Source: an uncultured Candidatus Rokubacteria bacterium
GTDB taxonomy: Bacteria; Methylomirabilota; Methylomirabilia; Rokubacteriales; CSP1-6
DNA length: 64,000 nt
Assembly (NCBI GenBank): GCA_963762145.1
Contig: CAVXJS010000011.1
Location: 352,001-416,000 of the forward strand
Direction: 5' to 3'
Position 1 is the first letter of the stretch. Each line of letters begins with the position of its first letter. The translations under genes and the position numbers were made by a program. This document shows positions 22,805 through 43,213 of this stretch, in pieces. The notes beneath the pieces are model-generated. The model was not told the DNA's origin, did no database searches, and worked only from the letters and a program-made list of their open reading frames with translations.

Positions 22805-23343
22805 CCGCGCTCCCCGCGCGGGCGCTCCGTGAGGAGCGGCACCAGGAGGCTCACCGCCAGCTCCGCCTTCAGCCGGAGCTCCTCGTCCCGGTTGCCCGCG
22901 ACCGGGTGCGCGATCACCGCGAAGGGGTAGTCGGCCCGGCCGTTCGCCTCGGCCATCGCCCGGGCACTCGCCTCGAACCGGTCGGTGATGACCGCGACGG
23001 CGGGGATGCCGAGCCTTTCGGCGGACATGGCGTCGTGCAGACTGCACGACGAGCAGCTCCCTCAGTCTCCGATCGCGGAGATGATCGCGTCGGCGCCGCT
23101 CATCTCGCCGAGCATCTCCGCGGGCGCGGGGCGGCTCGAGTCGGGCTTGCGCCGGCGAATGAACTCCCGGACGCCGTACCGCGACGCGAGGATCCGCTCG
23201 ACGTGGTTGTAGAAGCCGGCCGTCCCGATCTTGGCGTTGTCGAGGAGGCCGACGACGGTGCCCTCCAGCCCTCGGAGCGGCGCGGCCAGGGTCATGGCGT
23301 CGCCCTCGGCGTCGAGTCGCGGATCCAGCACTCTCAGGCCCAT
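22801..23343 (-). CDS. UGSC-family selenoprotein, copy A (180 aa with Sec)
   Basis: ORFs 23062..23343 and 22801..23028 are in frame across TGA 23062-23064, giving SAIGD-U-GSCSSCSLHDAMSAERLGIP. Confidence 0.9.
23031..23051 (-). promoter_or_regulatory. Candidate SECIS hairpin, copy A
   Basis: CGTCGTGCA-GTC-TGCACGACG, perfect 9-bp stem 10 nt after the UGA. Confidence 0.8.
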
Positions 23344-23355
23344 GGCTTCCCCTTA

Positions 23356-24390
23356 TCAGATCGTCTTGGTGACGGCGAGCGACTTGGCCCCGTACCACGG
23401 CGGCACCACGACTCCGAACCCCCCGGCCGGGCCTCCCGCGGCCACGATCAGCAGGTCGTCGGGCGACCGAAGCGCGGGGTACACCGTCTCCTCGTCCTTC
23501 CGCGCGGCCACCGCGCTCTTGCCGGCCGTGCGCCACTCGCCCCGGCGCACGCGGGCGGCCTCGAAGACGTAGGCACGGATGTCCGCCTTGCTCCACCCCG
23601 CGGCGCCGATCGTGTCGCGCTGCTGCTTGGCGATCACGAGGGCGTAGTTGCCGGCCCAGATGGAGTACGTGAGCATGTTGGCGCGGATGGCGGCCACGTA
23701 GGTATCGAGGATCTCCCGGGGATCGTGTGTCCACTCGTTCATGATCTGGTGCGGCGACTCCGCCGCGAGCACCGTCACCGCCGAGGCGCCCGCCGGCACG
23801 CCCCGCTCGGCCGCGAGCGACGGCCAGGGACTGTCCTCCTCGTCCTCGGCCACGCAGAAGGTGAACTTGCCGGGATGCCCGAGGGTCGACCGATCGAGCC
23901 GGCCGGGAACGCCGCCGAGCACGTTGATGATGAGCAGCCGGAGCGCCCGCCCGATCGTGGCGTTCGCCCGGCTGCCATTGGCGAGCACGTTGTGGGTCGC
24001 GTTCATCCCGATCGCGGTGCGGACCGGGCCGTTGACCACGACGAACGGGGCACTCCCGCCGGTACTCGCGGTGCACCCGTGTAGCCCGTACGCCGGCTCG
24101 CACACCGCCCGCACGAGCGCCATCACGACCGGCATGTACTCGGGGCGGCACCCGGCCATGACCGCGGCGATGGCCGTCTTCTCTGCGGTGATGCGCCGCC
24201 GCCGCACCGGCTCGACCCCGACGACGTCCCCCGCGCCGACGGTGGCCGCGTCGAGGAACCGCCGGACCAGCTCCTCGGTGGGCGGGACGATCGGCAACCC
24301 GTCCGTCCAGCCATTGCGCTGGAACAGCTCGTTCGCCTCGTGAGGGTCGGCCACGTCGTAGGCCGCCGACCGCAGCGCCTGCTCGGTCAT
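23356..24390 (-). CDS. UGSC-associated uncharacterised protein, copy A
   Basis: GWTDGLPIVPPT, AVMAGC, VNGP, RANATIGRALRL, DRSTLGHPGK, AEDE; paralogous to 41631..42674 and to the C-terminal part of 37024..38616. Confidence 0.9.
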   Translation of the reverse strand: MTEQALRSAAYDVADPHEANELFQRNGWTDGLPIVPPTEELVRRFLDAATVGAGDVVGVEPVRRRRITAEKTAIAAVMAGCRPEYMPVVMALVRAVCEPAYGLHGCTASTGGSAPFVVVNGPVRTAIGMNATHNVLANGSRANATIGRALRLLIINVLGGVPGRLDRSTLGHPGKFTFCVAEDEEDSPWPSLAAERGVPAGASAVTVLAAESPHQIMNEWTHDPREILDTYVAAIRANMLTYSIWAGNYALVIAKQQRDTIGAAGWSKADIRAYVFEAARVRRGEWRTAGKSAVAARKDEETVYPALRSPDDLLIVAAGGPAGGFGVVVPPWYGAKSLAVTKTI

Positions 24391-24453
24391 CGCGGAACGA
24401 ATGATGACACCGGGTGCCGCTCGACACCAGCCCGAAGCGCGACGTCGCCGAAG

Positions 24454-25047
24454 CTAGTTGGAGGAGCGGGGCGACGACGACTTGGTGACCCACACCACCC
24501 ACGGCAGCGTCGCCGAGTCCTCCCGGCGCACGTCCACGCGATACCCCTGGCTGCGCATGCTGGCGGCGAGGCGGTCGGCCGCGCCATCGTCCGCGAAGGC
24601 GGCCGCACGCACCCAGGGCGCGGTGTCGCCGGCGACGGACCGGACCGGCTTCGGCTCGAGGTCTTCGCGCCGGGGGGCGAGCGCGAGGGCGTCGTTCAGC
24701 CACGTCTCGCGGAGCTCCGGCGACGCCACGGCCCAGGGCTCGTCGCGGGAAAGCGGAGCCGGAGCCTGCGGGAGGAGATAGGGTAATCCGAGGAAGACGA
24801 TCACGAACGTGGGAACGAATGCCGCGAGGGCGGTCTGGATCCCACGCAGCACAGGCGTGCCGGACTCCGGGACCTCTTCCCCTTCTTCCCCTTCTTCTTC
24901 TTCCTTCTCGTCGTCACTCCCGAGGGGATATCGGGCTTCGAGCGAGAGGCGGACATCGTCGAGGAGATCCCGTTCCGGTGCGAGCCACTCCCCAAGCTCG
25001 GTGGGCTCAACGGGACCCGCGGTACTCGCGATCGCTTCACGTTCCAC
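24454..25047 (-). CDS. Single-TM protein with acidic N-region and C-terminal SPOR-like domain
   Basis: TM segment AAFVPTFVIVFLGLPYLL; WVRAAAFADDGAADRLAASMRSQGY..WVVWV. Confidence 0.6.
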   Translation of the reverse strand: MEREAIASTAGPVEPTELGEWLAPERDLLDDVRLSLEARYPLGSDDEKEEEEGEEGEEVPESGTPVLRGIQTALAAFVPTFVIVFLGLPYLLPQAPAPLSRDEPWAVASPELRETWLNDALALAPRREDLEPKPVRSVAGDTAPWVRAAAFADDGAADRLAASMRSQGYRVDVRREDSATLPWVVWVTKSSSPRSSN

Positions 25048-25187
25048 GGCTGACCACCCCTTGCCTGCCGGGCAGGTCTGACTCGCTGCTGCTCGGGCCG
25101 GGTAAACGTATCCACCCGGGGGCGGCTTGTCAAGCGATGTTTTCGGGAAAGTCGGCGTAAGTATGTGACTCTGTTCATGTATAGCTC

Positions 25188-25206
25188 TGTGGATGAATGT
25201 GGATAA
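25188..25206. promoter_or_regulatory. Tandem DnaA-box-like sites
   Basis: TGTGGATAA (perfect TTATCCACA complement) at 25198-25206 and TGTGGATGA at 25188-25196, in an AT-richer intergenic region. Confidence 0.55.
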
Positions 25207-25231
25207 CATCCCCCACGAGCTGCCGGATCGA

Positions 25232-25966
25232 TCAGAGCGCGACGTCGCCGAGGAAGATGCGCTTGACCTCGGCGGACTGGAGCAGCTCCGCCGACGATCC
25301 GGTCAGGATGGTCCGGCCCGATTCGAGGATGTAGCCGCGATCCGCGAGCCGGAGCGCGAGCTCCACGTTCTGCTCGATGAACACGATGCTGATGCCCTGC
25401 TCGTCGCGGATGCGCCGCATCAGGCCGCCGAGCTGCTGCACGACGAGGGGAGACAGCCCGAGGAACGGCTCGTCGATCATCAGCAGGCGCGGGCGCGCCA
25501 TGAGCCCGCGCGCGATTGCCACCATCTGCTGCTCGCCGCCCGACAGGGTGTGCGCGAGCTGGGTCCGGCGGGACGCGATGATCGGGAACAGGCGCTCGAC
25601 CTGCGCCAGGGACTCCGCCCGGTGGGGGCGCGCGACCGGATTGTGGGCGCCCAGCAGCACGTTGTCGAGCACGGTGAGGAACGGGAACAGGCGCCGGCGC
25701 TCCAGCACGTGCGCGAGGCCTTCCCCCGCGGTGCGGTGGGCGGGCAGTCCGTCGATGCGCTTGCCGAGGAGGGTGATGTGGCCCGCGCGGGGCGCGATCA
25801 GCCCCGAGATCGAGTTCATCAGGGTCGACTTGCCCGCCCCGTTCGGTCCCAGGACCGCGACGATCTCGCCCTCGCCCACGTGCATCGCGGCCTGCCACAG
25901 CACCTGGAAGTCGCCGTAGGCGACGTCGAGGCCGTCGACCGATAGCATGGGCGTCGCGGCGCTCAC
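25232..25966 (-). CDS. Branched-chain amino acid-type ABC ATPase (LivF-like)
   Basis: GPNGAGKST, LSGGEQQM, IDEPFLGL. Confidence 0.9.
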   Translation of the reverse strand: MSAATPMLSVDGLDVAYGDFQVLWQAAMHVGEGEIVAVLGPNGAGKSTLMNSISGLIAPRAGHITLLGKRIDGLPAHRTAGEGLAHVLERRRLFPFLTVLDNVLLGAHNPVARPHRAESLAQVERLFPIIASRRTQLAHTLSGGEQQMVAIARGLMARPRLLMIDEPFLGLSPLVVQQLGGLMRRIRDEQGISIVFIEQNVELALRLADRGYILESGRTILTGSSAELLQSAEVKRIFLGDVAL

Positions 25967-26685
25967 TGGGTGTACGCCTTGCCGAGGTAGGCGTCGACGA
26001 CCCGGGGGTCGCGCGTCACCACGTCGGGCGTGCCGTCGGCGATCTTCTCGCCGAGGTAGAGGGCGACGATGCGCTGGGCCACCGCGGTGATGACCCGCAT
26101 GTTGTGCTCGATGACCAGGAGGGTGAGGCCGCCGCGGTGCAGGTCGCGGACGAGCTGCACCAGGCCGGGAATGCTGCGCTGGTCCACGCCGCCGGTCACC
26201 TCGTCGAGCAGGAGGACCCGCGGCTCGGTGGCCAGCGCGCGGGCCAGCTCGAGGCGCTTGCGCTGGCCGGTGGACAGGGTGCGCGCGTAGGCGTCCGCCT
26301 TCTCGCCGAGCCCCACGCGGTCGAGCAGCTCGCGGGCGCGGGCGCGCGCGTGGCGCACGTCGTGGGTGCGGGTGAGCGCGCCGACCATCACGTTGTCCAC
26401 CACGGTGAGCCCCGCGAACGGCCGCAGCTTCTGGAACGTCCGCGCCACGCCGAGGCGGCATACCCGGTCCGGCGAGAGGCCGGTGAGCGGGCTGCCGTCG
26501 AGCCGCACCAGGCCCGCGTCGGGGCGATAGAATCCGCTGATGATCTCGAACAGGGTCGACTTGCCGGACCCGTTCGGCCCGATGATGCCGACCAGCTCCC
26601 CGGGCGCCACGTCGAAGGAGACGTCGCGATTCGCGGTGACCCCGCCGAAGCTCTTGGTGATCCCCGCGACGGAGAGCAGGCTCAC
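25963..26685 (-). CDS. Branched-chain amino acid-type ABC ATPase (LivG-like)
   Basis: GPNGSGKST, ARTFQ, LLDE, IEHNM, AYLG. Confidence 0.9.
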   Translation of the reverse strand: MSLLSVAGITKSFGGVTANRDVSFDVAPGELVGIIGPNGSGKSTLFEIISGFYRPDAGLVRLDGSPLTGLSPDRVCRLGVARTFQKLRPFAGLTVVDNVMVGALTRTHDVRHARARARELLDRVGLGEKADAYARTLSTGQRKRLELARALATEPRVLLLDEVTGGVDQRSIPGLVQLVRDLHRGGLTLLVIEHNMRVITAVAQRIVALYLGEKIADGTPDVVTRDPRVVDAYLGKAYTQ

Positions 26686-27656
26686 GCGGCCGGCCTCGGG
26701 GCGGGGCGCCGGCGCAGGAGCGCGCCGACCCAGGGGAGCAGGCCTTGCGGCGCGACGCGCATGGTCACGATGAGCGCGGTCCCGTAGATGATCAGGTAGA
26801 TCCCCACGAGCCCGGCCCCGATCCCGCCGAAGCGAGCGCGGAGCGATGTCTCCAGGAGCGTGATGAGGGCGGCGCCGAGGAACGGCCCGAGCGGGGTCCC
26901 GATGCCCCCGAGGATCGCGAACAGGCAGAAGCGGACCGACAGGTCCACCGAGAAGACGTACAGGGGGTCCACGAAGCCGACGTACTGGGTCCAGAGCGTG
27001 CCGCACACCGCGGTGAGCGCGGCGCTGACCGCGATGGCGGCGACCTTGAGGCGGCGGGCCGGCACGCCGAGCGAGAGGGCGGCGTCCTCGTCTTCGCGCA
27101 CCGCGGCGAGCTGATAGCCGCGACGCGAGCGCTCGAGGTACAGCTGGACCAGGTAGAGCACGGCGGCGAGGACGAGGATGAGGTACACCCACACCCGCTT
27201 GTCCACGATCCCCAGCGTCCAGAGGCCTGGGCGGAAGGGAACCGGGATCCCCTCCGATCCGGAGGTGAAGGCGCGCCAGCGGCTCGCCACGATGAGCAGC
27301 ACCTGGGAGAGGGCGATCGTCGCGAGCCCGAAGTAGGGGCCGCGGAGACGGTTGCTGAGAAAGCCGAGGATGACGCCGAACGCGGTGGCGAGCGCGGCGC
27401 CGACCAGCAGGCCGATCCAGGGCGAGACCCCCCAGCGCGTGCCGAGGATCGCCGCCGCGTAGGCGCCGAGCCCGAAGAAGGCGGCGTGGCCGAGCGAGAC
27501 CTGGCCGGCGTAGCCGCCGGCCACGTTCCAGGCCGCCCCGGTCGTGCCCCACAGCAGGATCAGGACCAGGCCGTCGAGGAGGAAGGCGTCGCGGACCACG
27601 AGCGGCCCGAGGGCGGCCGCGGCGAAGAACGCGAGGGCGGGCCACGGGCCTCTCAC
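26682..27656 (-). CDS. ABC permease (LivM-like)
   Basis: GYAGQVSLGHAAFFGLGAY, GPYFGLATIA, AVREDEDAA..LG. Confidence 0.9.
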   Translation of the reverse strand: MRGPWPALAFFAAAALGPLVVRDAFLLDGLVLILLWGTTGAAWNVAGGYAGQVSLGHAAFFGLGAYAAAILGTRWGVSPWIGLLVGAALATAFGVILGFLSNRLRGPYFGLATIALSQVLLIVASRWRAFTSGSEGIPVPFRPGLWTLGIVDKRVWVYLILVLAAVLYLVQLYLERSRRGYQLAAVREDEDAALSLGVPARRLKVAAIAVSAALTAVCGTLWTQYVGFVDPLYVFSVDLSVRFCLFAILGGIGTPLGPFLGAALITLLETSLRARFGGIGAGLVGIYLIIYGTALIVTMRVAPQGLLPWVGALLRRRPAPRPAA

Positions 27657-28534
27657 GTGCCGATCACCTCGGCCCCGCGCTGGCCGAACAGGCCGGCGGG
27701 ACGGATCACGAGGATCGCGATGAACAGGAGCAGGTAGAGCACTTCCTTCCACGCGGTCCCGATGACGTAGGACCCCACGACCTCGACGAAGGCCACGACG
27801 AGGCTGGCGATCAGCGCGCCGACCATGTCCCCGAGTCCGCCCAGCACCACCGCCACGTAGGCGATCAGCACGAACTGGAGCCCGATCGACGGGTAGACGG
27901 GATAGATCGGCGCGAGCACCACCCCGGCCACCCCGACGCAGGTGATGCCGACCGCCCACGTCATGGCGAAGACCCGGCCGGTGTCGATCCCCATGAGCGA
28001 CGCCGCGTGCCGGTCCTGCGCGGTCGCCCGCATGATCTTCCCGGCGTAGGACCACCGCATGAAGGCGAAGAGCCCGGCGGTGAAGAGGACCGCGACCACG
28101 AACGCGGCGATCTGGGCGAGGTTGATCGCCACGCCGCCGAAACGGACGACGACCGCGTAGTAGCTGGTCCGGACGAACTGGGCGTCCGCGCTCCAGAGCA
28201 CGAGGGCGAGCGCCTGGAGCGCGATCGACAGCCCGACGGTCGTGAAGATCTGCACGCTGTGCGAGGCGTGGATCACCGGCTGCATGACCAGGCGGTAGCT
28301 GAGCCATCCGCCCCCGAAGATGACGGGCAGCCCCAGCACGAGCGTCACGTAGGGATCGAGCCCGAGGAGGGTGAATGACCAGAAGGCGAGATACATGCCC
28401 AGCATGAGGAACTCGCCGTGCGCGAAGTTGACCACCCGCATCACCCCGAAGATGAGGGTGAGGCCCACCGCGATGAGCGCGTAGATGCCGCCCAGCAGGA
28501 TGGTGGAGGCGAGAAGCTGGGGAATGACGTGCAT
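27653..28534 (-). CDS. ABC permease (LivH-like)
   Basis: YALIAVGLTLIFGVMRVVNFAHGE, RATAQD..A.LMGI. Confidence 0.9.
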   Translation of the reverse strand: MHVIPQLLASTILLGGIYALIAVGLTLIFGVMRVVNFAHGEFLMLGMYLAFWSFTLLGLDPYVTLVLGLPVIFGGGWLSYRLVMQPVIHASHSVQIFTTVGLSIALQALALVLWSADAQFVRTSYYAVVVRFGGVAINLAQIAAFVVAVLFTAGLFAFMRWSYAGKIMRATAQDRHAASLMGIDTGRVFAMTWAVGITCVGVAGVVLAPIYPVYPSIGLQFVLIAYVAVVLGGLGDMVGALIASLVVAFVEVVGSYVIGTAWKEVLYLLLFIAILVIRPAGLFGQRGAEVIGT

Positions 28535-28618
28535 GGTCGGTTGATCAGCCGACAGCGCGACGCCCCGGGGTGGCGCCCCGGGGCGTACGAGCTGAGATCG
28601 GCGGATCGGCGGGGCGCG

Positions 28619-29893
28619 CTACTTGCGCTGGTCCCACGCGCCGAGCGGGATCCACTTGGCGCGGTTGGTGGTGAACTCCTCCGGCCACACCGTGACGAGC
28701 TGCCCGCCCTGCCACTGGAGCATGTAGTGCTGCACGCGGGCGTTGGTGTTCTGCCCGTTCTCGTCGAACTTCAAGCCCCAGCCGTTGATCGCCGAGCCGA
28801 CCGGCACGTCCATCGCCATGACCGCGGCGCGGAACTTGTCGGGGTCGTCGCTCTTGGCCGCGTCGAGCACGAGCTTGAGGACCCACAGGCCGCCTCCCGC
28901 GAGCTGGTGCCCGCCGGTGGGGATGTCCGAGCCGGTCTTGGTCTTCACCGCGTTCCGGAACGCGCGCTCGATCTGCTGGCCCTCGGGCCGCATCTTCTCG
29001 ATGATCAGGCCGGGGCCGGGCTCGAGGAGCGCGAAGGGACCGTTGCCGTCATTGCCGAAGGCCTTGCCGAAGTCGGGCGAGCCGTAGCCGGTGGCCCCCG
29101 CGTGGACGACCGCCTTGACCTCGAAGTTCTGCTCCCGCGCCTGCCGCCAGAAAAGGATGGCGTCCTGGTTGCGGGCGATGTGGTGCAGGACGTCGGGGTT
29201 GGCGTTCTTGAGCTTGAGGATCACCGGGGTGAGGTCGTTGGTGGTGAAGGTGTAGTACTCCAGCGCCACCTCCTGCATTCCGAACTCGGCCTTGGCCCGC
29301 TGCCGCGCGGACTCGGTCACGCTCTGGCCGTACGAGGAATCCTCCGACAGATACGCGACGCGCAGCTCGCTCGTCTTCTTGCCGAGACGGTGCGCGAGAT
29401 GCTTCGCGATGAACTCGACGTTGTACCAGCCGAACCCGGTACCGTCGATCTCGGTCCGGTACACGTTCTTGAGCCCGCGCTTGGTGAGCCGCGGATCGAC
29501 GCAGGACGTCTCCCAGTAGATGACGTTCTGCCGCGCGGCCGCCTCGCTGGCCGCGCCGCACAGGGTGGAGGAGAAGGTGCCGGTGATGATCTTGACCCCT
29601 TCCCGGGTGGCCAGCCGGGTGGCCTCGGAGGCGGCCACGGTCGGATCGACCGCGTCCCCGACCACGAAGACCAGCTTCTTGCCCATCACGCCGCCGCGCT
29701 CGTTGATGAGGTCGCGGACGATCTCGTAGCCCTCGAGGTGCCGCTTGCCCTCGGCCGCGAGGTTGCCGGTCAGCGGCTCCAGCACCCCGATCTTGTACTC
29801 GCCACTCAGCGGCTGCTGCGCCTGGAGGGCGCCGACGGCACCGACGGCCAGCGCGACGAGACCCACCACCACCGTCCACTTCATTCGCCTCAT
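28619..29893 (-). CDS. ABC substrate-binding protein (LivJ/LivK-type)
   Basis: Signal peptide, KIGVLEPLTG, INERGGV.GKK, EDSSYG. Confidence 0.9.
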   Translation of the reverse strand: MRRMKWTVVVGLVALAVGAVGALQAQQPLSGEYKIGVLEPLTGNLAAEGKRHLEGYEIVRDLINERGGVMGKKLVFVVGDAVDPTVAASEATRLATREGVKIITGTFSSTLCGAASEAAARQNVIYWETSCVDPRLTKRGLKNVYRTEIDGTGFGWYNVEFIAKHLAHRLGKKTSELRVAYLSEDSSYGQSVTESARQRAKAEFGMQEVALEYYTFTTNDLTPVILKLKNANPDVLHHIARNQDAILFWRQAREQNFEVKAVVHAGATGYGSPDFGKAFGNDGNGPFALLEPGPGLIIEKMRPEGQQIERAFRNAVKTKTGSDIPTGGHQLAGGGLWVLKLVLDAAKSDDPDKFRAAVMAMDVPVGSAINGWGLKFDENGQNTNARVQHYMLQWQGGQLVTVWPEEFTTNRAKWIPLGAWDQRK

Positions 29894-29993
29894 GCCTGCT
29901 CTCCTCTCGTTGGTCCGGGGCACTGCGATTGGGACGGGCGGCGGCAGCGACAACCCGACGCACCGGGCGGCCAGTGTACCGCAGGTGGCCGCC

Positions 29994-30968
29994 CTACTGC
30001 TCCTGCTCCTGCTGCTGCTGGGCCGCGATCTCCTCGGCGGCCAGCTTGAGCCGGTCCCTCCGGCGCTCCGGGATCTCCTGGTAGACCGGGACGTCGATCT
30101 GCTCCATCTCCTCGTGCAGCGCCGAGATGTCCTTGGGGGTGGATTCCTGGGTGCGCACCTCGGTGCGCAGGGTCTCGTCCGCGTTGCCGCGGAAGATGCC
30201 CTTGTTGGGCGGCACGTCGTCGTAGTGCCGGCCGTGGCCCACCACCACGTAGTGGCCGTCGATCTCGCGGTTGTGGGTCGGATCGAACGGCACCCAGCCC
30301 GCGGTGGGAGAGTAGAACTCCACCCACGCGTGGCTCTGGGCCGTCTCCCCGTCGCGCGCCGGCATGTGCAGGTAGCCGCTCACGTAGCGGCACGGGATCT
30401 GGCGCAGCCGCAGGAGGCCGAGCATGAGGTGGGTGAAGTCCTGGCAGACGCCCGCCCCCGCGGCGAGGAAGTCGTCGCTGGTGGATTCGTAGCTGGTCAC
30501 GTTCTTCCGGTAAGTGAAGTGCTCGCCGATGTGCCGTCCGCACGCGCGCACCAGCTCGCCGAGCGGCGCGGTCGCCGGGACGGGCACCCCCTGCGCGAAC
30601 TTGCGCAGCGCCGCGCTCGCCCGCACCGGCCCGTCGAAGGCCAGGAAGTCGAGCAGAGGGTAGGGCGGCTCCGGATACGGACGCGGGTCGGTGACGCTGG
30701 CCAGCGCGGGCGCGGCCGGATGGGTGCTCACCGCGGAGCGAGCCACCACCTCGATGCGGTCGTGGAAGTGGACGATCGTGAAGTGGTGCACCACGTTGTG
30801 GTTCCAGTCCCGGTAGCGCGAGGTCTTGGTCGGCGGGCCCACCGCGAGCACGAAGGACTGGAGCGTCTGGTCCCCGGTGGTCTTGGGCTGCATGCGCAGC
30901 TCGAGGAATGACTCCCGGATGTAGGCGTCGTAGGCCAGCGACAGGGTGTGCTCGATCTCGACGAACAT
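29994..30968 (-). CDS. Transglutaminase-like protein with Gln-rich C-terminal tail
   Basis: GVCQDFTH, RYVSGYL, SHAWVE, FDPTH, GR.YDDVPP; ends QQQQEQEQ. Confidence 0.9.
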   Translation of the reverse strand: MFVEIEHTLSLAYDAYIRESFLELRMQPKTTGDQTLQSFVLAVGPPTKTSRYRDWNHNVVHHFTIVHFHDRIEVVARSAVSTHPAAPALASVTDPRPYPEPPYPLLDFLAFDGPVRASAALRKFAQGVPVPATAPLGELVRACGRHIGEHFTYRKNVTSYESTSDDFLAAGAGVCQDFTHLMLGLLRLRQIPCRYVSGYLHMPARDGETAQSHAWVEFYSPTAGWVPFDPTHNREIDGHYVVVGHGRHYDDVPPNKGIFRGNADETLRTEVRTQESTPKDISALHEEMEQIDVPVYQEIPERRRDRLKLAAEEIAAQQQQEQEQ

Positions 30969-30973
30969 GGCGC

Positions 30974-34010: not shown

Positions 34011-34165
34011 CCGGATCCGGCTCAAGACAACGCGCTACCCACGTGACCTCGGTGTCACGGTCGCTCGTCCGCGGACCGCCAGCTCGCCCTTCTGATTCTC
34101 GGGCTGATTCTCGGGTCTCACGCGTAGCGCCATTGGATTGCGCTCGCCTCGCCGCTCGACGCGGC

Positions 34166-34564
34166 TCAGCTCGCCCTGCCCTTGGCGGCGGCGCGCTCGA
34201 GGAAGCGGGCGAGGTCGGCCACCATGAACCGCTCGTGCCGTCCCTCCGCGATCTTCTCCACCTCGTCCCACGCCTCGACCTCGAAGAGGAAGCGCCGGCC
34301 GTCGGTCTCCCGCAGCACCGCCTTGGCGCGCACGCGCATGCCCGGCGGCGTGGCGGCCAGGTGACGCACGTCCACCCCGGTGCCCACGGTGGCCGCGCCG
34401 GGCGCCAGGTGCGGGACCATCACCGCGTGAGCCGCGTGCTCGAGCAGGTTGATCACGAACGGGGTGGCGAAGACGGTGACGCCGGGATTCCCGAGGGCGT
34501 CGGCGGTGAGCTGGCGCGTGACGACGCGCTCGACGGTGGCGGCCTGCCCGGGCTCGAGCGGCAT
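34166..34564 (-). CDS. FlK-type (fluoroacetyl-CoA) hot-dog thioesterase
   Basis: VFATP...E, TVG..V.VRHLAATP.G, G.HER. Confidence 0.85.
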   Translation of the reverse strand: MPLEPGQAATVERVVTRQLTADALGNPGVTVFATPFVINLLEHAAHAVMVPHLAPGAATVGTGVDVRHLAATPPGMRVRAKAVLRETDGRRFLFEVEAWDEVEKIAEGRHERFMVADLARFLERAAAKGRAS

Positions 34565-34626
34565 GGGTGTTCTTCTACCCCGATTGCCGCGCCAGGTCAA
34601 CGGGCCGGGGCACGTATACTTGCCCG

Positions 34627-35805
34627 GTGCCCGTCCTCCTGGCCGCCCTCGGCGCGCTGCTCGTCTCGCTCGACTCCGCGATCAACATCGCGCTTCCCGC
34701 GATGGCCACCGCCTTCGGGGTCGGCCCGGCGGAGATCCGCTGGGTCATCATCTGCTACGTCCTCACCTACGCCTTCACCGCGTTCGCGGCGGGCCTCCTC
34801 GCGGATCGTCTCGGCCCCGGGCCGGTCTTCACGGCCGGGCTCTGGCTCTGCGCGGCCACCTTCATCGGCTACGGATTCTCCTCCTCCTACGGCGTGACGC
34901 TGCTCCTGCGCGTGGCGCAGGGTGTGGGCAGCGGGATGGTCTACGGGACCGCGCCCGCGCTGGTGACGCTGTCGCTCCCGCCCGCGCGGCACGGCCGCGG
35001 GCTCGGCACGATGAGCCTGGGCATCGGGGTCGGCCTCGGTGTGGGCCCGGTGGTCGGCGGTTTGCTCGTGGACGCCTTCGGCTGGCCCGCATCCTTCGTG
35101 TTCCGCGCGCCGCTGTTCCTGCTCCTGGCGGTGCTCGCCCTCACCTCCTTCGGCCGGGTCGCCGGCACCGCGCCCACGCCGCGCCGGCTCGCGATGGCCG
35201 ATCTGCTGCGCCTGCCCGTGCTCCGCGCCGGCACGCTCGCGTTCCTCTCGCAGTACGCGCAGTTCGCGGTCTGGCTGCTCATGCCCTTCTTCCTGGTGAC
35301 CGCGCGCGGCCTCTCGCCCAGCGTGGGCGGGGTCGTCTTCGTGCTCACGCCGCTCGCCACCGCGCTCGCGGCGCCGCTCGGCGGGGCGCTCACCGATCGC
35401 ATCGGTCCGCGGTGGCCGCTGCGCATCGGGCTGGCGGTCGAGGCGGCGGGGCTGCTCGCGATCGGCACGGTCGGTGAGGCGACGCCGATCGCGCTCGTGG
35501 GCGCCGCGATGGCCATGGTGGGCCTCGGGGCCGGCCTCTTCCAGGTGCCCAACCTGGCCCTCATGATGGCGGCGTTCCCGCCCGCGCAGCAGGGCGCAGC
35601 GGGCGGGCTCGCATTCCTCGGGCGCACGCTGGGCAGCGCGGTGGGCGTGCAGATGACCGCGCTGCTCTTCGACGCGCGACTGCCGCGCGACGGCTTCCTC
35701 GCCGCCTTCCACGCCGCCTTCGTGGCCGCCGGTCTCGTCTGCCTGCTCGCGGCGGCTCTGGCGCTGCTCCCGACGCGGTCGTCCGCCCCCCGCGGCGGCC
35801 GGTGA
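34627..35805 (+). CDS. MFS transporter (DHA2-like, shortened)
   Basis: LDSAINIALP, GLLADRLG, RVAQGVG, GPVVGGLL. Confidence 0.85.
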   Translation: MPVLLAALGALLVSLDSAINIALPAMATAFGVGPAEIRWVIICYVLTYAFTAFAAGLLADRLGPGPVFTAGLWLCAATFIGYGFSSSYGVTLLLRVAQGVGSGMVYGTAPALVTLSLPPARHGRGLGTMSLGIGVGLGVGPVVGGLLVDAFGWPASFVFRAPLFLLLAVLALTSFGRVAGTAPTPRRLAMADLLRLPVLRAGTLAFLSQYAQFAVWLLMPFFLVTARGLSPSVGGVVFVLTPLATALAAPLGGALTDRIGPRWPLRIGLAVEAAGLLAIGTVGEATPIALVGAAMAMVGLGAGLFQVPNLALMMAAFPPAQQGAAGGLAFLGRTLGSAVGVQMTALLFDARLPRDGFLAAFHAAFVAAGLVCLLAAALALLPTRSSAPRGGR

Positions 35806-37015
35806 GCGAGCCCGGCTCGCCGTACCGCTGGGCGATCCTCGCGGTCTGCGTCGCGGGTTTCATGCAGACCCACGTGCACCGCGTGGGCTTCGCTCCGCTC
35901 ATCCCGACCTTCATCGCGGACATGGGCCTCACCTACGCGGCGGCCGGGACGATCATGGCCGCGTACTTCTGGAGCTACGCGGTGATGCAGATCCCGGTGG
36001 GCGTGCTCACCGATCGGCTCGGAGCGCGCCGGGTGATGCTCGGCTGCATGGGGGTGCTGGCGGTGGGCGCGGTGGCCTTCTCGCTGAGCCAGACCTACGC
36101 GCAGAGCCTCATTGCGCGCTGCCTGCTCGGCACGGGCGCGGCGGCCACGTGGCTGCCGGGTCTGCGGCTGATCCAGGAGTGGTTCGCGCCGCGCGAGCGC
36201 GGGCTCGCCACCGGGCTCTTCTCGGCGGGCGGCGGCGTGGGCGGCACCGCCGCGCTGCTGCTCCTGCCGGTCATGGCGGAGCATCTCGGCTGGCGGGTGG
36301 GCTACGCGCTGCTCGCGGTGCCGGTGCTGGCCACGATGGTCGCGGTCTGGCTCCTGGTGCGGGCCGAGCCTCGCGCGCGCGACGGGGGGCGGTGGCGGGC
36401 CTGCCCACCCAGTTCCTCGCCGGCATGCGGGAGGTGCTCGCGACGCCCGCGCTCTGGCCCTTCAACCTCTATGTGCTCTTCTCCTACGGCGGTTACTTCG
36501 CGCTCCTCACCTGGCTGCCCACCTTCCTCGTGAAGTCGGAAGGGCTGACGCAGGCGGGCGCGGGCTTCGTGACCGCGCTCATCACCGGCGGCACCATCGT
36601 GTCGTGGCCGCTGGCCGGGTACCTCTCGGATCGCTTCGGGCGCCGCAAGCCGATCTTCCTGGTGAGCCAGGCCACGAGCGTGCTGGTGTGCCTGGCCTTC
36701 GCCTATCTGGTGCCGGGCGCCGGGCTCGCGGGCACCGCGGCGGTCGCCGCGCTCACCGGGCTCCTGCTCGGAGGGTTGATCACTCCGTTCGTGATGGTGA
36801 CCGAGCTGGTGCCCCCGCGGCTGATGGGGACCGCGTCCGGCGTGGTCAACGCGTTCTGCTTCGTGGGCGGGTTGCTGGTGCCGGTGGCGCTCGGCTACGC
36901 CCTCGACGTGACCGGGAGCTTTCCCGCCGCCTTCACGGCCTGCGCGGTCTTCGAGCTGGTCGCCCTCGGCATCGCGGTGTTTGCGCGGGAAACCGGACGC
37001 CGGGCCGCGGTATGA
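35802..37015 (+). CDS. MFS transporter, frameshifted near 36400
   Basis: QIPVGVLTDRLGARR, WF.PRERG.A.G, GYLSDRFGRRK. Confidence 0.85.
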
Positions 37016-37023
37016 TGGCGGCC

Positions 37024-38616
37024 ATGGAGATCCTCGACCCGGTCGGCTCGACGTCCGCGGCATCCCGGACGCTGGCTCCACGGCCCGCGACGCTGGCGGG
37101 CGCGGTCATCGGCGTGCTCGACAACTCGAAGCCCAATGCCCGCGTCCTGCTGGAAGGCGTGGCCCGCGCGCTCGCGCAGCAGGTCGGGGCCCGTGATGTG
37201 CGGATCTGGGGCAAGCCCGGCGCCTCCATCGGCGCCACGCCCGCCGTCCTGGACGAGATCGCCGCGCAGTGCGGCGCCGTCCTCACCGCCTCCGCCGACT
37301 GAGGGTCGTGCACGTCGTGGAGTATCCACGACGCCACGCAGCTCGAAGGGCGGGGGATCGCCACCGTCGTCCTGGGCACGCATGAGTTCCGCCCCCTCGC
37401 GCTCGCCGAGGCGAAGGCCAAGGGGCTCCCCGACCTGGGAATCGTCACGGTGCCGCATCCCATCGGCGGCATCGCCGAGAAGCTCGTCACCGGCAAGGCC
37501 CTGAACGCGGTGGACGCGGTGCTGGCCGCGCTCACGCGCGGCCCCGCGGGCGGGGTCGGCGCGGGCGCGGTCGAGGGCACGGTCGCGCGGCACCGGATCC
37601 CCGACGACCTGCTCGAGTTCCAGGGCTTCATGATGGAGCGGGGCTGGGGGGACGGCCTGCCCATGATCCCGGCCACGCCCGAGCGCGTCGCGGCCATGCT
37701 CGCGGGCACCGGCCGGCCCGCGGGCGATCTGGTGGCGATCCTGCCGCCGCGGCTCGGCCGGGCGACGGTGGAGCGCGTCGCGGTCAACGCGGTGCTGGCC
37801 GGCGCGCTGCCCGAGCATTTCCCGGTCATCCTCGCCGCGGTCGAGGCGGTGGCGCAGCCCGCGTTCAACCTCCAGGCGATCCAGACCACCACCCATCCCT
37901 GCTCGCCGCTGATCATCGTCAACGGGCCGATCGCGGCCCGGCTCGGCATCAACGGCGCGGGCAACGCGCTCGGGCAGGGCCATCGCGCCAACGCGGTGAT
38001 CGGGCGGGCGCTGCGGCTCGTGCTGCAGAACACGGGCGGGGCGCGGCCGGGGAGCGAGGACCGGGCCACCCAGGGCCATCCCGGCAAGTACAGCTACTGC
38101 GTCGCCGAGAACGAGGCCGCCTCGCCGTGGGAGCCGCTCTCGGTCGAGCGCGGATTTCCCGCGACGGTGAGCACGGTGACGGTGTGCGCCTCCGAGAGCC
38201 CGCACAACATCAACGACCACGGCTCGTCCACCCCGGAGGGCATTCTCACCACGGTGGCGGGCACCGCCGCGACGGTGGGCTCCAACAATATCTACCTGGG
38301 CGGCGAGCCGCTGGTGATCCTGGGGCCGGAGCACGCGGCCACCGTGGCGGGCGGAGGCTGGAGCAAGGCGGACTTCAAGCGCGCGCTCTGGGAGCGGGCG
38401 CAGGTCCCGCTCTCGCGCTTCGATCCGGCCAACCTGGCCCGCTTCGAGGTGATCCACCCGGCCGGGTTCAAGGACCAACCGCCGGAGACGCTGGCCCCGC
38501 TCGCGCGGGCGTGGACCGACCTCATGATCGTGGTGGCGGGCGGGGCCGGGAAGCACTCCGTGCTGATCCCCACCTTCGGAGCCACGCGCTCCGTCACGCT
38601 GCGGATCGAGGCCTGA
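37024..38616 (+). CDS. Fusion of UGSC selenoprotein domain and partner domain, copy B (about 530 aa with Sec)
   Basis: MEILDP..LDNSKPN..TASAD-TGA(37300-37302)-GSCTSWSIHDA..PHP continues in frame into ORF 37450..38616 (GWGDGLPMIPAT, GHPGK, AENE). Confidence 0.9.
37313..37333 (+). promoter_or_regulatory. Candidate SECIS hairpin, copy B
   Basis: CGTCGTGGA-GTA-TCCACGACG, perfect 9-bp stem 10 nt after the UGA. Confidence 0.8.
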
Positions 38617-38619
38617 GGG

Positions 38620-40248
38620 CTAGCGCGCGGGCGCGTAGAGGCGGGCGAAGTACTCCTGCACCATGCGGTCCGAGCTGAAGCGCTCGGTCGCCATCCGGAT
38701 CGAGGCGCGCATCATCGTGGTCCAGCGCGCGGGATCCGCGAACGCGGGCAGGACCTCTCCCTCGAGCGTCTCGTAGAGCGCGCGCAGGTCGCGCGCGTCC
38801 GGGTCGGGCGGGGTCGACTCGTCGCCGATCGCCCAGCCGGTGACGCCGTGCTCGCAGCCTTCCGGCCACCAGCCGTCCAGCACCGAGAGGTTCAGCGTGC
38901 CGTTCATCGCCGCCTTCATCCCGGAGGTGCCGCTCGCCTCCATCGGACGGCGGGGCGTGTTCAGCCACACGTCGGCGCCGCGGGTGAGCACGCGGCCCAG
39001 GGCCATGTCGTAGTCCTCGAGGAACGCCATGCTCTCGGGCCACTGCCGCAGCGCCGCCACCAGCCGCGCGATCACCGCCTTGCCCTCGTGATCCGCGGGG
39101 TGCGCCTTGCCCGCGAAGAGCACCTGGACGCGATGGCGCTTGACCAGCGCCGCGAAGCGCTCCGGGTCGCGCAGGAGCAGGTCGGGCCGCTTGTAGGTGG
39201 CCGCGCGGCGCGCGAAGCCGATGGTCGGCGCGGCCGGGTCGAGCCGCACGCCGGTGCGCCTGCGGACCTCCGCGAGCATCTCGGTCTTGAGGGCGCGCTT
39301 GGCCGCCAGCAGCCGCTCGTCGCTGCCCAGCCCGGCGGGGATGCGGGCGTCCTGCCAGGTTCCGGGGTGGACCCCGTTGGTGATCGCGATGATGGGCGCC
39401 GCCTCCTTCACGTGCGCCCACATGGCGCGCGCGGTCTCCCCGTGCAGCTGCGCCACCGCGTTGGCCAGGTGGGCCAGGCGCAGGCCGGCCACCGTCATGT
39501 TGAACGGGTCGCCGCCGATCTCGGCCAGCTCGCTCGGCACCAGCTCGCAGCCGGCTCCGAGGCGCCGCAGGTCCGCGAGCGAGTGCACCTCGTTGCCCGC
39601 GGGGACCGGGGTGTGGGTGGTGAAGACGATGCGCTCCCGCGCGGCCAGCCACGCGTCCCGGAAGGTCTGCCCGGCTTCCATGCGGTCGGCGATCATCTCG
39701 ATGCCCGCGAAGACGGCGTGGCCCTCGTTGAAGTGGTAGCGCTCGACCGGCAGGTGGAGCGCGCGCAGCGCCCGCACCCCGCCGATCCCGAGCAGCATCT
39801 CCTGCGCCACGCGACAGTCTGGCCGCGGGTCGTAGAGTCGCCGGGTGATCCACAGGTCGCGCGGATCGGTGGGCTCGAGCAGGTAGAGAGGCGCGATCGC
39901 GTAGCGGCCCACGCGCCAGACGCGGCACTCGACCTCGCGCGCCGCAACGCGCACGCGCACCCGCGCGCCGGTGTCGGTGAGGACGTCGGGCTTCTGATCG
40001 GTCCACTCGTCGTGGGGATAGCCGTCGGCGCCGATGTGCTGGGAGGTGTAGCCCTGGCTCCAGCGGAGTCCGATGCCGACGACGGGCAGGCCGAGGTCGC
40101 CCGCCGACTTCATGAAGTCGCCCGCGAGCACGCCGAGGCCGCCCGCGTAGGAGTGGAAGGCCTCGTGCAGGCCGTACTCCATCGAGAAGTAGGCGACCAG
40201 CGGAGGGCGGGCCGGGGCGTTCAACGAGGCGGTCACGTCTTCGAGCAT
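38620..40248 (-). CDS. glgP: Alpha-glucan phosphorylase (compact form)
   Basis: YFSMEYG, YAGGLG.LAGD, NEGH, ARR..YKR, AGKAHP, EASGTSGMKAAMNG. Confidence 0.9.
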   Translation of the reverse strand: MLEDVTASLNAPARPPLVAYFSMEYGLHEAFHSYAGGLGVLAGDFMKSAGDLGLPVVGIGLRWSQGYTSQHIGADGYPHDEWTDQKPDVLTDTGARVRVRVAAREVECRVWRVGRYAIAPLYLLEPTDPRDLWITRRLYDPRPDCRVAQEMLLGIGGVRALRALHLPVERYHFNEGHAVFAGIEMIADRMEAGQTFRDAWLAARERIVFTTHTPVPAGNEVHSLADLRRLGAGCELVPSELAEIGGDPFNMTVAGLRLAHLANAVAQLHGETARAMWAHVKEAAPIIAITNGVHPGTWQDARIPAGLGSDERLLAAKRALKTEMLAEVRRRTGVRLDPAAPTIGFARRAATYKRPDLLLRDPERFAALVKRHRVQVLFAGKAHPADHEGKAVIARLVAALRQWPESMAFLEDYDMALGRVLTRGADVWLNTPRRPMEASGTSGMKAAMNGTLNLSVLDGWWPEGCEHGVTGWAIGDESTPPDPDARDLRALYETLEGEVLPAFADPARWTTMMRASIRMATERFSSDRMVQEYFARLYAPAR

Positions 40249-40273
40249 ACAACGGGGCGGGCCGGAGGCGGGC

Positions 40274-41539
40274 TCAGGGGCGGGGCTTCCAGGGGTGGGT
40301 GATGAGGCGGGCGCCTCGCTGCCAGGTCAGGTAGGCCCAGGCCCACTCGAAGAGGACGAGGAACCGATTGCGGAAGCCGATGAGGAACAGGATGTGCACG
40401 AAGACCCAGGCGAGCCACGCGGGCAGGCCGTGGATCTGGAGACGGCCGACCACCGCCACCGCGGCCGCGCGGCCGATGGTGGCCATGGTCCCGCGATCCC
40501 GGTAGCGGAACGGCCGGGTCGGCAGGCCGGCCAGGAGCCGGCGCACGTTCGCCGCGACGGCCTGCCCTTGCTGGATCGCCACCGGCGCCAGGCCCGGGAG
40601 CGGCTGCCCGTCGGGTCCCGGACAGCTCGACATGTCGCCGATCGCGAACACCATCGCGTGGCCGGGGATGGAGAGATCCGGCTCCACGAGCACCCGGCCC
40701 GCACGATCGAGCGGCGTCCCGAGCGCGCGGGCGAGGGGGGAGGCGGCCACGCCCGCCGCCCACAGCACGGTGCGGGCGCGGATCTGCTCGCCGCCGAGCC
40801 AGACCGCGTCGTGGGTCACCCGCGTGACCGGCGTCCCGGTGCGAATCTCCACGCCGAGACGGGCGAGGGCGGCGGCCGCGTGGCCGGACAGCGGATCGGG
40901 AAAGCTCGCGAGCAGGCGCGGACCGGCCTCGACGAGGACGATCCGCGCCTTCGTGGGATCGATGACCCGGAAGTCCCGCGCGATCGTCTCGCGCGAGATC
41001 TCCGCCAGCGCGCCCGCGAGCTCGACGCCGGTCGGTCCGCCGCCGATGACGACGTAGGTCAGGAGCGCCCGCTGCTCGGCCCCGTCCCGCTCGCGCTCCG
41101 CCTCCTCGTAGGCCAGGAGCACGCGTCGCCGGATCTCGAGCGCGTCCTCCAGGCTCTTGAGGCTCGGGGCCAGCTCCTCCCAGTCGCCGTGGCCGAAGTA
41201 CGAGTTGCCCGCGCCCGCGGCCAGCACCAGCGCGTCGTAGGTCAGCTCGCCGTCGTCCAGGATCACGCGACGGCCGGCCACGTCCACCGACCGGACCTCG
41301 GCGAGCAGGACGGTGACGTTGGCGGCGCGCCTCAGGACGGAGCGGAGCGGGGTCGCGATGTTCGACGGATTGAGGGCGGCGGTGGCGACCTGGTAGAGCA
41401 GGGGCTGGAAGAGGTGGTGGTTGCGCCGGTCGAGCAGCGTGACACGCGCCCAGCTTCCGGTGAGCGCGCGGGCGGCGGAGAGCCCGCCGAATCCGCCGCC
41501 GACGATGACCACGTGCGGTCGCTGCGCTCCCGTGCTCAC
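40274..41539 (-). CDS. ndh: Type II NADH dehydrogenase-family FAD oxidoreductase
   Basis: GGGFGG, NHHLFQPLLYQVAT, GGGPTGVELAG, A.QQG, G.MATIGR. Confidence 0.85.
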   Translation of the reverse strand: MSTGAQRPHVVIVGGGFGGLSAARALTGSWARVTLLDRRNHHLFQPLLYQVATAALNPSNIATPLRSVLRRAANVTVLLAEVRSVDVAGRRVILDDGELTYDALVLAAGAGNSYFGHGDWEELAPSLKSLEDALEIRRRVLLAYEEAERERDGAEQRALLTYVVIGGGPTGVELAGALAEISRETIARDFRVIDPTKARIVLVEAGPRLLASFPDPLSGHAAAALARLGVEIRTGTPVTRVTHDAVWLGGEQIRARTVLWAAGVAASPLARALGTPLDRAGRVLVEPDLSIPGHAMVFAIGDMSSCPGPDGQPLPGLAPVAIQQGQAVAANVRRLLAGLPTRPFRYRDRGTMATIGRAAAVAVVGRLQIHGLPAWLAWVFVHILFLIGFRNRFLVLFEWAWAYLTWQRGARLITHPWKPRP

Positions 41540-41630
41540 CCGGCCATCTTCCGAGCGCGCCCGGGGGGTGTCAACCCTTGACAGGACGCGGGGTTGGACA
41601 TAGGGTGACCCCGGACAGGAGGATCTGGGC

Positions 41631-42674
41631 ATGGCCACGCGGATCAGCTCCCAGCGGTACGCCGTCGAGGACTTCAACGAGGCGCTCGAGCTCTGCTACA
41701 CCCGCGGCTGGACCGACGGGCTGCCGGTCGTGCCGCCCACGGAGCCGGCGGTGCGCGCGATGCTGGACGCGGTGGGGCTCGAGGCCGACGCGCAGGTCGC
41801 CTTCATCACGAATCGTCAGGTCGCCATCAGCGCCGAGAAGGTGGCGATCAACACGGTGATGGCCGGCTGCCGGCCCGAGCACATGCCGGTGGTGCTGGCC
41901 GCGGTCGAGGGCATCGCCGATCCGCGCTGGGGCTATCACGGACCGGCCACGTCCACCGGCGGCGCGGGCGTGCTGATGATCGTCAACGGGCCCATCGCGC
42001 GGCGGCTCGACTTCAACTGCGGCGACAACCTCTTCGGCCCGGGCTGGCGCTCCAACGCCACGGTGGGCCGCGCGGTGCGCCTCGTGATGCGCAACGTGAT
42101 CGGCACCATTCCGGGGCGCCTCGATCGCGGCACGGTCGGCCACCCCGGCAAGTACACCTACGTGATCGCGGAGAACGAGGCGGAGAGCCCGTGGACGCCG
42201 CTGCACGCGGAGCGCGGCTGCCGGCCGGAGGACAGCGCGGTGACCGTCATGGCCGCGCTGGGACCGAACCAGTTCTACAATCAGCTCTCGAGCACCGCGG
42301 CGGGTGTCCTGGGCACGATGTGCGACGCCATGCGCTACCCCGGCATGGTGGGCCAGCCGAACTACTGCGTGGTGCTGGCCGGCGAGCACATGCGGACCAT
42401 CGCGGCGGACGGCTGGTCCAAGTCCGACATCCGCAAGTACGTCTTCGAGAACACCACGAACACGATCGCGCATCTCAAGCGGACCGGGCGGCTGCCCGGC
42501 GCGATCAAGCCGGAGGACGAGACCGCGACCCGGCCCCTGGTGTTGACCCCGGACGACCTCCTGGTGGTGGCGGCGGGCGGTCGCGCGGGCTCATTCTCGT
42601 GCTACATCCCGGGCTGGGCGAGCCGGACGTCGTCGCAGGCGGTAACCACCGTGATCAAAGAGAGGAGAACATGA
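41631..42674 (+). CDS. UGSC-associated uncharacterised protein, copy C
   Basis: GWTDGLPVVPPT, VMAGC, VNGP, RSNATVGRAVRL, DRGTVGHPGK, AENE; AGGAGG RBS. Confidence 0.9.
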   Translation: MATRISSQRYAVEDFNEALELCYTRGWTDGLPVVPPTEPAVRAMLDAVGLEADAQVAFITNRQVAISAEKVAINTVMAGCRPEHMPVVLAAVEGIADPRWGYHGPATSTGGAGVLMIVNGPIARRLDFNCGDNLFGPGWRSNATVGRAVRLVMRNVIGTIPGRLDRGTVGHPGKYTYVIAENEAESPWTPLHAERGCRPEDSAVTVMAALGPNQFYNQLSSTAAGVLGTMCDAMRYPGMVGQPNYCVVLAGEHMRTIAADGWSKSDIRKYVFENTTNTIAHLKRTGRLPGAIKPEDETATRPLVLTPDDLLVVAAGGRAGSFSCYIPGWASRTSSQAVTTVIKERRT

Positions 42675-43213
42675 TGGCGGGCTTCGAGATCCTGGATCCG
42701 ACGGTCGAGCCCCGGCGCCAGCCGCTGACGTACGTGGCGCGGCCGGACTCGCTCAAGGGCAAGCGCATCGGCCTAGTGGAGAACACCAAGTACAACTCCG
42801 ACAAGCTGCTGGTCAAGATCGGCGACATCCTGAAGCAGGAGTACGGGGCGTCCGAGACCCGGATGTGGCGAAAGCACAACGCCGGCGTGCCCGCGCACGC
42901 GGAGATCCTCGAGGAGGCCAAGCGTACCGTCGACGTCGTCGTCGCCGGCATCGGGGACTGAGGGTCCTGCTCGTCGGGCAGTGTGCTCGACGGAATCGTG
43001 TTCGAGAAGGTCGGAATCCCGGCCGCGTCCATCGTCACCGATGTGTTCGAGGGTACCGGACACGCCATGGCCCAGTCCTGGGGCGTCCCGGAGTACCGTT
43101 TCCTGGCCCTGCCGCATCCGATCGCAAACCTGAGCGAGGCCGACCTCGACGCCCGCGCCCGCGCGATCGCGCCAGAGGTCGTCCGACTGCTATTGAAAGG
43201 CCAAGAAGGCTAA
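42671..43213 (+). CDS. UGSC-family selenoprotein, copy C (180 aa with Sec)
   Basis: GAGGAG RBS and ATGA overlap with the partner stop; AGIGD-TGA(42959-42961)-GSCSSGSVLDG in frame with ORF 42983..43213. Confidence 0.9.
42972..42992 (+). promoter_or_regulatory. Candidate SECIS hairpin, copy C
   Basis: CGTCGGGCA-GTG-TGCTCGACG, 9-bp stem with one G-U pair, 10 nt after the UGA. Confidence 0.8.

Follow-up and report, generated by a model that had tools for sequence, protein, structure and literature searches.

Three UGSC-family selenoprotein genes lie in a 64,000-nucleotide (nt) stretch of DNA from an uncultured Candidatus Rokubacteria bacterium (assembly GCA_963762145.1, contig CAVXJS010000011.1, positions 352,001 to 416,000 of the forward strand; this whole stretch is called the window below). 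Each of them carries, just downstream of an in-frame UGA, a compact RNA hairpin that is very probably the selenocysteine insertion sequence (SECIS) of its mRNA. RNA-level selection on this hairpin, proposed in a preliminary description of this DNA, is well supported by comparing sequences across the family: selenocysteine (Sec) and cysteine (Cys) forms differ, base pairs change in a compensatory manner and synonymous sites are frozen. Judged from sequence, the three genes are new members of a known selenoprotein family and their hairpin is a SECIS of the ordinary bacterial type; it reveals no new recoding mechanism. Given that both the family and the SECIS model had already been published, the novelty of the element was overrated in the preliminary description.

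Hairpins at the three Sec codons of the window

A degenerate pattern built from that description (UGA, 10 nt, a 9-bp stem and a GUN loop) matched the window three times, exactly where the elements had been placed: at 23031-23064 on the minus strand and at 37300-37333 and 42959-42992 on the plus strand. None of 100 dinucleotide-preserving shuffles of the window contained any match. The genes (referred to as A, B and C), their Sec codons and their hairpins are as follows.

22801..23343, minus strand: gene A, UGSC-family selenoprotein of 180 amino acids, Sec at residue 94 (translation with TGA read as U; PF24696 162.3 bits, NF041046 124.7 bits)
23062..23064, minus strand: Sec codon UGA of gene A, in frame and within the D-U-G-S-C motif
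23031..23051, minus strand: probable SECIS hairpin of gene A, 9-bp stem, loop GUC, starting 10 nt past the UGA (pattern, direct reading, RNAfold)
37012..38616, plus strand: gene B, UGSC domain fused to a partner domain, 534 amino acids, Sec at residue 97 (translation; PF24696 167.3 bits, NF041046 127.6 bits)
37300..37302, plus strand: Sec codon UGA of gene B (sequence reading, translation)
37313..37333, plus strand: probable SECIS hairpin of gene B, 9-bp stem, loop GUA (pattern, direct reading, RNAfold)
42671..43213, plus strand: gene C, UGSC-family selenoprotein of 180 amino acids, Sec at residue 97 (translation; PF24696 195.4 bits, NF041046 141.3 bits)
42959..42961, plus strand: Sec codon UGA of gene C (sequence reading, translation)
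42972..42992, plus strand: probable SECIS hairpin of gene C, 9-bp stem including one G.U pair, loop GUG (pattern, direct reading, RNAfold)

All three proteins exceeded the cut-off of the Pfam model PF24696 'UGSC family' (25 bits). For NF041046 'UGSC family (seleno)protein', an equivalog model with a cut-off of 125 bits, B and C passed and A fell 0.3 bits below. The D-U-G-S-C motif stands at the conserved position in each of them.

Direct reading of the sequence gave the same layout at each site, namely TGA, 10 nt, a 9-nt arm, the loop (GTC, GTA and GTG in A, B and C, respectively) and the complementary 9-nt arm, with an A-U closing pair throughout and the apical loop starting 19 nt 3' of the UGA. 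The constant 10-nt spacing is in part a consequence of a protein alignment without indels. The reading also confirmed that differences between the genes preserve pairing while the encoded peptides differ: at stem pair 8, A has C-G where B has G-C; at pair 6, A has U-A where C has G.U; and the hairpin region encodes SCSLHD in A, SWSIHD in B and SGSVLD in C. As internal controls, we inspected the terminal TGA stops of gene B (an ordinary stop at 38614-38616) and of the partner gene directly upstream of C, and no comparable hairpin was found after either.

RNAfold placed the 9-bp hairpin within the minimum free energy (MFE) structure of A, B and C, and the 21-nt hairpins folded alone reached -13.3, -13.5 and -12.6 kcal/mol, respectively. 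Folding z-scores of 60-nt segments were weak (-2.58 for A, -1.40 for B and -0.23 for C) because any sequence of ~71% GC folds well. Considering that single-sequence z-scores have too little power at this composition, we relied on comparative tests instead. Rfam release 15 gave no relevant match in the window at the gathering score, and no match with E <= 10 at the SECIS sites of the eight loci where UGSC paralogs occur in this genome, which shows only that Rfam has no fitting model.

Sec and Cys forms across the family

The metagenome-assembled genome (MAG) that contains the window comprises 6.26 Mb in 25 contigs and encodes eight UGSC paralogs, each with one in-frame TGA. Seven of them share the register of the hairpin, which has a GUN loop and 7-9 contiguous pairs. 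In the eighth (locus L024, C19:53033-53467, minus strand, motif UGTC), a GGUC loop starts about 25 nt past the UGA on a stem of 6 bp. This copy belongs to a divergent UGSC subfamily, UG[ST]CATACGR..., together with L153 and L154 from a Bordetella-labelled MAG; members of this subfamily lack the AGU hairpin and have a stem based on GCGGC/GCCGC, with a GGUC or CGUGCU loop that starts 24-25 nt past the UGA and still fits the bacterial SECIS model.

PF24696 was detected in all 61 related genomes and in 211 of 251 genomes of the phylum, and every match listed (150 of 341 and 150 of 1,116, respectively) contained one TGA, with one match in each set also containing a TAG. In a sample of 401 Burkholderiales genomes, the family was found in 39; among the matches listed (150 of 177), 148 had one TGA and two had none. 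For the comparison of Sec and Cys forms, we took 138 loci, 137 of which had one recognisable U/C-G-x-C site; L146 was left out since the regular expression found no site in it, L118 duplicated L046, and eleven spurious regular-expression matches had been removed before the first count. The resulting 136 UGSC sites comprise 106 Sec and 30 Cys forms, and the Sec set includes one locus (L124) from a genome flagged as unpublished.

It could be argued that the TGAs are true stops and that each gene is really two open reading frames, a pseudogene or the product of a sequencing error. Standard gene callers would split UGSC genes in this way, and the MAG is 88% complete with 5.4% contamination. However, the TGA lies at the Cys position of homologues, as all 30 Cys-form homologues align with Cys at the UGA; it recurs in 8/8 paralogs of the genome and in all of the listed matches from related genomes and the phylum; and the frame is open and coding-like on either side of it. 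We therefore assign this account practically no probability and read the TGAs as Sec codons.

The test set in advance was whether hairpin and AGT codon are equally conserved in Cys orthologues, and they are not. A GUN loop 19 nt past the UGA on at least six contiguous pairs was present at 96 of the 106 Sec sites, and seven more have at least six pairs below a UGUAY loop at 18 nt, so that 103 of 106 have a hairpin in register; none of the 30 Cys sites has one. Codon +7 counted from the UGA, the Ser codon at the loop, is AGT in 95 Sec sites, TGT in eight and another codon in three. At the Cys sites, AGT was never found (0/30), and codon +7 encodes Thr in 27 cases, Ser (as TCG) in two and Ala in one. 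That AGT is rare in this genome, as had been noted from the window, was borne out by 1,893 long open reading frames of the MAG with high GC content at third codon positions, where it accounts for 1.8% of Ser codons.

Two Cys forms from Burkholderiales-labelled MAGs (L045 and L046) encode a peptide, GSCSSGSVLD, identical to that of gene C, but have TCG for Ser and an internal mismatch in the stem. Considering their sequence, these stems look like a SECIS decaying after conversion of Sec to Cys.

Covariation and synonymous-site constraint

Two ungapped sets of 40-mers were compared: 56 distinct Sec sequences, from which the unalignable L024 and the unpublished L124 had been dropped, and 26 distinct Cys sequences. 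In the Sec set, 83.3% of cells were paired in the named structure, compared with 73.7% in column shuffles, and none of 500 shuffles reached the observed covariation score; sliding the register lowered pairing to 28-47%. The Cys set paired in 56.0% of cells and its shuffles in 53.9%, and 60 of the 500 shuffles reached the observed value. RNAalifold, run without a given structure, recovered the same helix from the Sec set (columns 17-21 with 27-31, -8.44 kcal/mol), with three of the five pairs compensatory and none broken, while it placed no helix there in the Cys set (-1.29 kcal/mol). This was the Sec/Cys comparison that the preliminary description had outlined.

The inner six pairs are formed in all cells but three, in each of which a UGUAY variant lacks its closing pair. 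At pair 19:29 we counted GU (25 sequences), UA (17), GC (12) and AU (2), at pair 20:28 GC (44) and CG (12), and at pair 21:27 CG (52) and GC (4). In the loop, G23 and T24 are invariant in 56/56 sequences.

Synonymous sites gave a second line of evidence. Among 39 distinct Sec windows with the peptide SSGSVLD, drawn from several phyla, codon diversity was 0.0 at codons +5 to +9, and the mean over +1 to +10 was 0.178, compared with 0.444 in the rest of the 91-codon window. Within Actinomycetota, the corresponding values were 0.082 against 0.231 in Sec forms (24 windows), whereas Cys forms (27 windows) showed 0.379 against 0.380. Given that the synonymous freeze is found in Sec but not in Cys forms, the constraint acts on the RNA, and only where the codon is UGA. 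When codons were resampled by genome usage with the peptide held fixed, a contiguous in-register stem like the one observed arose in 2.0-5.1% of 20,000 draws per paralog, a figure that leaves the loop U and the rarity of AGT out of account.

Several results weigh against reading the hairpin as a SECIS. As shown by the level of pairing in column shuffles, peptide and base composition by themselves account for part of the pairing. The sequences that contribute compensatory cells are related to one another, and the cells count sequences, not events; the number of independent events is small. Of the 56 Sec sequences, only 18, 25 and 44 form the three outermost pairs of the 9-bp stem, respectively, and the folding z-scores of B and C are not significant. 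Three of the 106 Sec sites (L024, L153 and L154) lack the AGU-type hairpin and have other hairpins further downstream, and L045 and L046 retain seven of nine in-register pairs despite their Cys codon, although the stem is interrupted. The co-occurrence with SelB in five other genomes is also mixed: a genome with Sec forms (G253) has a full-length SelB; one with both Sec and Cys forms (G254) has a best match of 241.6 bits, against a cut-off of 242.25, that covers the N-terminal part only; a Cys-only genome that is the source of L045 or L046 (G252) has SelB fragments on two contigs; and two further Cys-only genomes (G251 and G255) gave only matches at the level of EF-Tu in the SelB search.

Some of these points (the shuffles, the Cys forms with an identical peptide and the z-scores) would favour an explanation in which a GC-rich genome and the conserved S-x-S-[VLI]-[HL]-D peptide yield the palindrome as a by-product, with no selection on the RNA. 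However, synonymous diversity at +5 to +9 is nil in Sec forms compared with 0.38 in Cys forms, and the rare AGT is found in the great majority of Sec sites and in no Cys site. Nor does a by-product account for compensatory changes at three pairs where the encoded residues differ, nor for a stem that fixed-peptide resampling reaches in so few draws. We consider the by-product explanation extremely unlikely and retain selection at the RNA level.

The poor retention of the outer pairs bears instead on the size of the element. The conserved unit is a stem of 6 bp (7 in most sequences) that starts 13 nt past the UGA. The position-fixed, covarying 9-bp stem originally described thus holds for A, B and C, while across the family only its inner six pairs are conserved.

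Comparison with known SECIS elements and the known family

In the bacterial SECIS (bSECIS) model of Zhang and Gladyshev (bSECISearch), as outlined in a 2026 review (PMC13188914), the loop has 3-9 nt, the stem 4-16 bp, the distance from UGA to loop is 16-37 nt and the MFE is at most -7.5 kcal/mol; a G stands at the first or second position of the loop, mostly in the form N1-G[G|U]N-N2 with N1 and N2 paired. The hairpins of A, B and C share with this model their place directly 3' of an in-frame UGA and inside the coding region, and have a 3-nt A-GUN-U loop, 9 bp, a distance of 19 nt and energies from -12.6 to -13.5 kcal/mol. The fit that had been proposed therefore extends to every sequence property in the model, and we found no difference among the properties tested; the loop is at the small end (3 nt, or 5 if the A-U pair opens). 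The machinery is also encoded in the same genome as the UGSC genes: selA (577 bits), a full-length selB (363 bits), selC as a tRNA-Sec of 69.3 bits, and two selD genes. One selD (contig C14) has no in-frame TGA. The other (C11:419505-420437, plus strand) contains one and lies ~3.5 kb past the right end of the window, adjoining the UGSC-rich region.

The best-studied point of comparison is the SECIS of Escherichia coli fdhF, whose minimal element is a 17-nt upper stem-loop 11 nt from the UGA (PMC11431864), with a sequence, as quoted in PMC10945757, that has UGCA/UGCA at the stem top and a GGUC loop. The UGSC hairpin resembles it in the 10-13 nt between UGA and stem and in a loop with G first and then U, and the stem top of gene A is the same tetranucleotide pair, UGCA/UGCA, as in the quoted minimal element. 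It differs in having no bulged U, a GUN instead of a GGUC loop and a longer, fully paired stem that starts 10 nt (its core 13 nt) past the UGA; moreover, the cognate SelB is that of E. coli in one case and Rokubacterial in the other. By analogy, the UGSC hairpin would work like the fdhF SECIS, yet it is not the same element.

The protein family itself is well documented. Lists of selenoprotein families have included a 'UGSC-containing protein' since 2007 (PMC1976440), and the Global Ocean Sampling (GOS) survey, which counted 255 Sec and 21 Cys homologues, places UGSC among its most abundant families and names a 'UGSC/Unknown_1 fusion' in its Figure S1A legend (PMC2398784). The review cited above places UGSC under NF041046 and mentions a Methylomirabilota MAG with 63 predicted selenoprotein genes (PMC13188914). 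Our sample agrees with these sources in the U-G-S-C motif, the dominance of Sec (106 Sec versus 30 Cys) and the recurring fusion to an unnamed domain. In the portions of the UGSC selenoprotein literature accessible to us, supplements aside (which may hold SECIS drawings), we found no description of a SECIS consensus, of covariation or of a synonymous contrast between Sec and Cys forms.

Distribution of the hairpin among lineages and genes

The AGU hairpin was found in Sec-form UGSC genes labelled Methylomirabilota/Rokubacteria, Entotheonella, Binatia, Nitrospinota and SAR324, and also in those labelled Desulfobacteraceae, Syntrophaceae, Actinomycetota (Trebonia, Streptosporangiaceae) and Burkholderiales. 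For a bacterial SECIS, its sequence is unusually conserved across phyla.

Within the 6.26-Mb genome, the pattern TGA-N18-A|GTN|T with at least six contiguous pairs matched eight times, and seven of the eight UGSC paralogs were among these matches; the same scan anchored on eight other trinucleotides gave 0-2 matches. The genome-wide scan that had been proposed as a way to find further selenoprotein genes thus returned almost only UGSC paralogs; the other selenogenes use different hairpins. In an ab initio scan of the MAG, the frame was coding-like on either side of 155 TGAs, and downstream of 43 of them lies a perfect hairpin with 6 bp or more whose loop has a G in its first two positions. All six CMD/AhpD-like genes with an in-frame TGA fall among these 43; their loops (GGC, GUC, GUG, GUU, CGUG and CGGGAA) lie 18-20 nt past the UGA, on stems unrelated to that of the UGSC genes. 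Considering that geometry is similar while sequences differ, the geometry is common to any bacterial SECIS of this organism, whereas the sequence is particular to the gene family.

We therefore rejected the lineage-specific consensus suggested at the outset: the motif crosses phyla, the exact pattern is mostly confined to UGSC paralogs, and other selenoprotein genes of the same genome have hairpins of their own. The hairpin can serve instead as a cheap and specific test for Sec-form UGSC genes, namely UGA, 13 nt, a 6-bp stem and an A|GUN|U top in which Ser is encoded by the rare AGU.

Proposed function

In the mechanism we propose, a ribosome positioned at the in-frame UGA would have the apical part of the hairpin, which comprises the inner 6 bp and A|GUN|U at their top, right outside its mRNA channel. 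SelB carrying Sec-tRNA(Sec) would bind the hairpin top through its C-terminal domain and deliver selenocysteine, so that release factor 2 would not terminate. Both SelB binding and Sec insertion at the UGA are steps that we infer. Since the signal lies inside the reading frame, it would fix the codons, and partly the residues, of the segment S-x-S-[VLI]-[HL]-D that follows U-G-S-C. The difference between Sec and Cys forms thereby offers a clean natural example of an in-frame RNA signal that constrains both codon choice and the encoded residues.

A genuine RNA element might also have a main role other than recruiting SelB, such as pausing at the UGA, protection of the mRNA or attenuation of transcription when translation stalls for lack of selenium. 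A stable hairpin 10-13 nt past a slow codon would pause ribosomes, and sequence data alone do not separate SelB binding from effects of this type. However, the loop G and U are invariant in all 56 aligned Sec sequences, a conservation far stricter than stability requires, and the loop agrees with the SelB-binding consensus both in where it lies (19 nt) and in what it contains (G-U, closed by A-U). Other selenogenes of the genome likewise have G-containing loops 18-20 nt past their UGA. A main role of this other kind therefore seems very unlikely, and we favour a SECIS that recruits SelB.

The paralogs of the genome differ in stem pair 8 (G-C or C-G), in pair 6 (U-A, G.U or A-U), in stem length (7 or 9 bp) and in the one copy with a distal GGUC loop. 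It is conceivable, although we consider it unlikely, that such differences set SelB affinities and thereby a hierarchy of selenium allocation among the eight UGSC/partner pairs under scarcity. A milder proposal is that the UGSC genes may have an unusually sequence-conserved, family-specific SECIS whose loss upon conversion of Sec to Cys would free the peptide, as in the change from Ser to Thr at +7.

Partner genes and other selenoprotein genes

Each UGSC gene is accompanied by a partner, either as a separate gene or as a fused domain. The copies in the window are the following.

23356..24390, minus strand: partner gene of A, 344 amino acids, directly upstream of A on the same strand; no Pfam or NCBIfam family
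37560-38616, plus strand: partner domain within gene B (tblastn)
41631..42674, plus strand: partner gene of C, 347 amino acids, directly upstream of C; no family in Pfam or NCBIfam; its TGA stop overlaps the gene C start codon

According to tblastn, the partner genes of A and C (~345 amino acids) belong to the same family as the C-terminal domain of B, and this family has exactly eight copies in the MAG, in a 1:1 relation with the UGSC paralogs and adjoining or fused to them. The partner is upstream of the UGSC gene in 4/8 cases and downstream or fused in 4/8. Stems of the GG/CC type, which encode the peptide SWS[IL]H, were found in 3/3 hairpin-type copies in which UGSC comes first or is fused, and in 0/4 copies with the partner upstream. 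A PDB sequence search with the UGSC and partner proteins gave no match, and an Atlas search with the partner protein returned unnamed clusters only. Two stops in tandem, TGA and then TAA (23353-23358, minus strand), close the partner gene of A, and gene A starts 10 nt beyond.

For annotation, the practical consequence is that gene callers split UGSC genes at the UGA, and eight such genes occur in this one genome. Its selenoproteome looks large: the ab initio list, in which the CMD set is the one checked against family models, includes CxxU AhpD/CMD-like genes and genes with Prx/Trx-like motifs such as WUPYC, PGUT, WUTTC and WUGC. The same list contains two similar genes with a T/S-U-P-[FV]-C motif, at C8:72084 and C11:603672.

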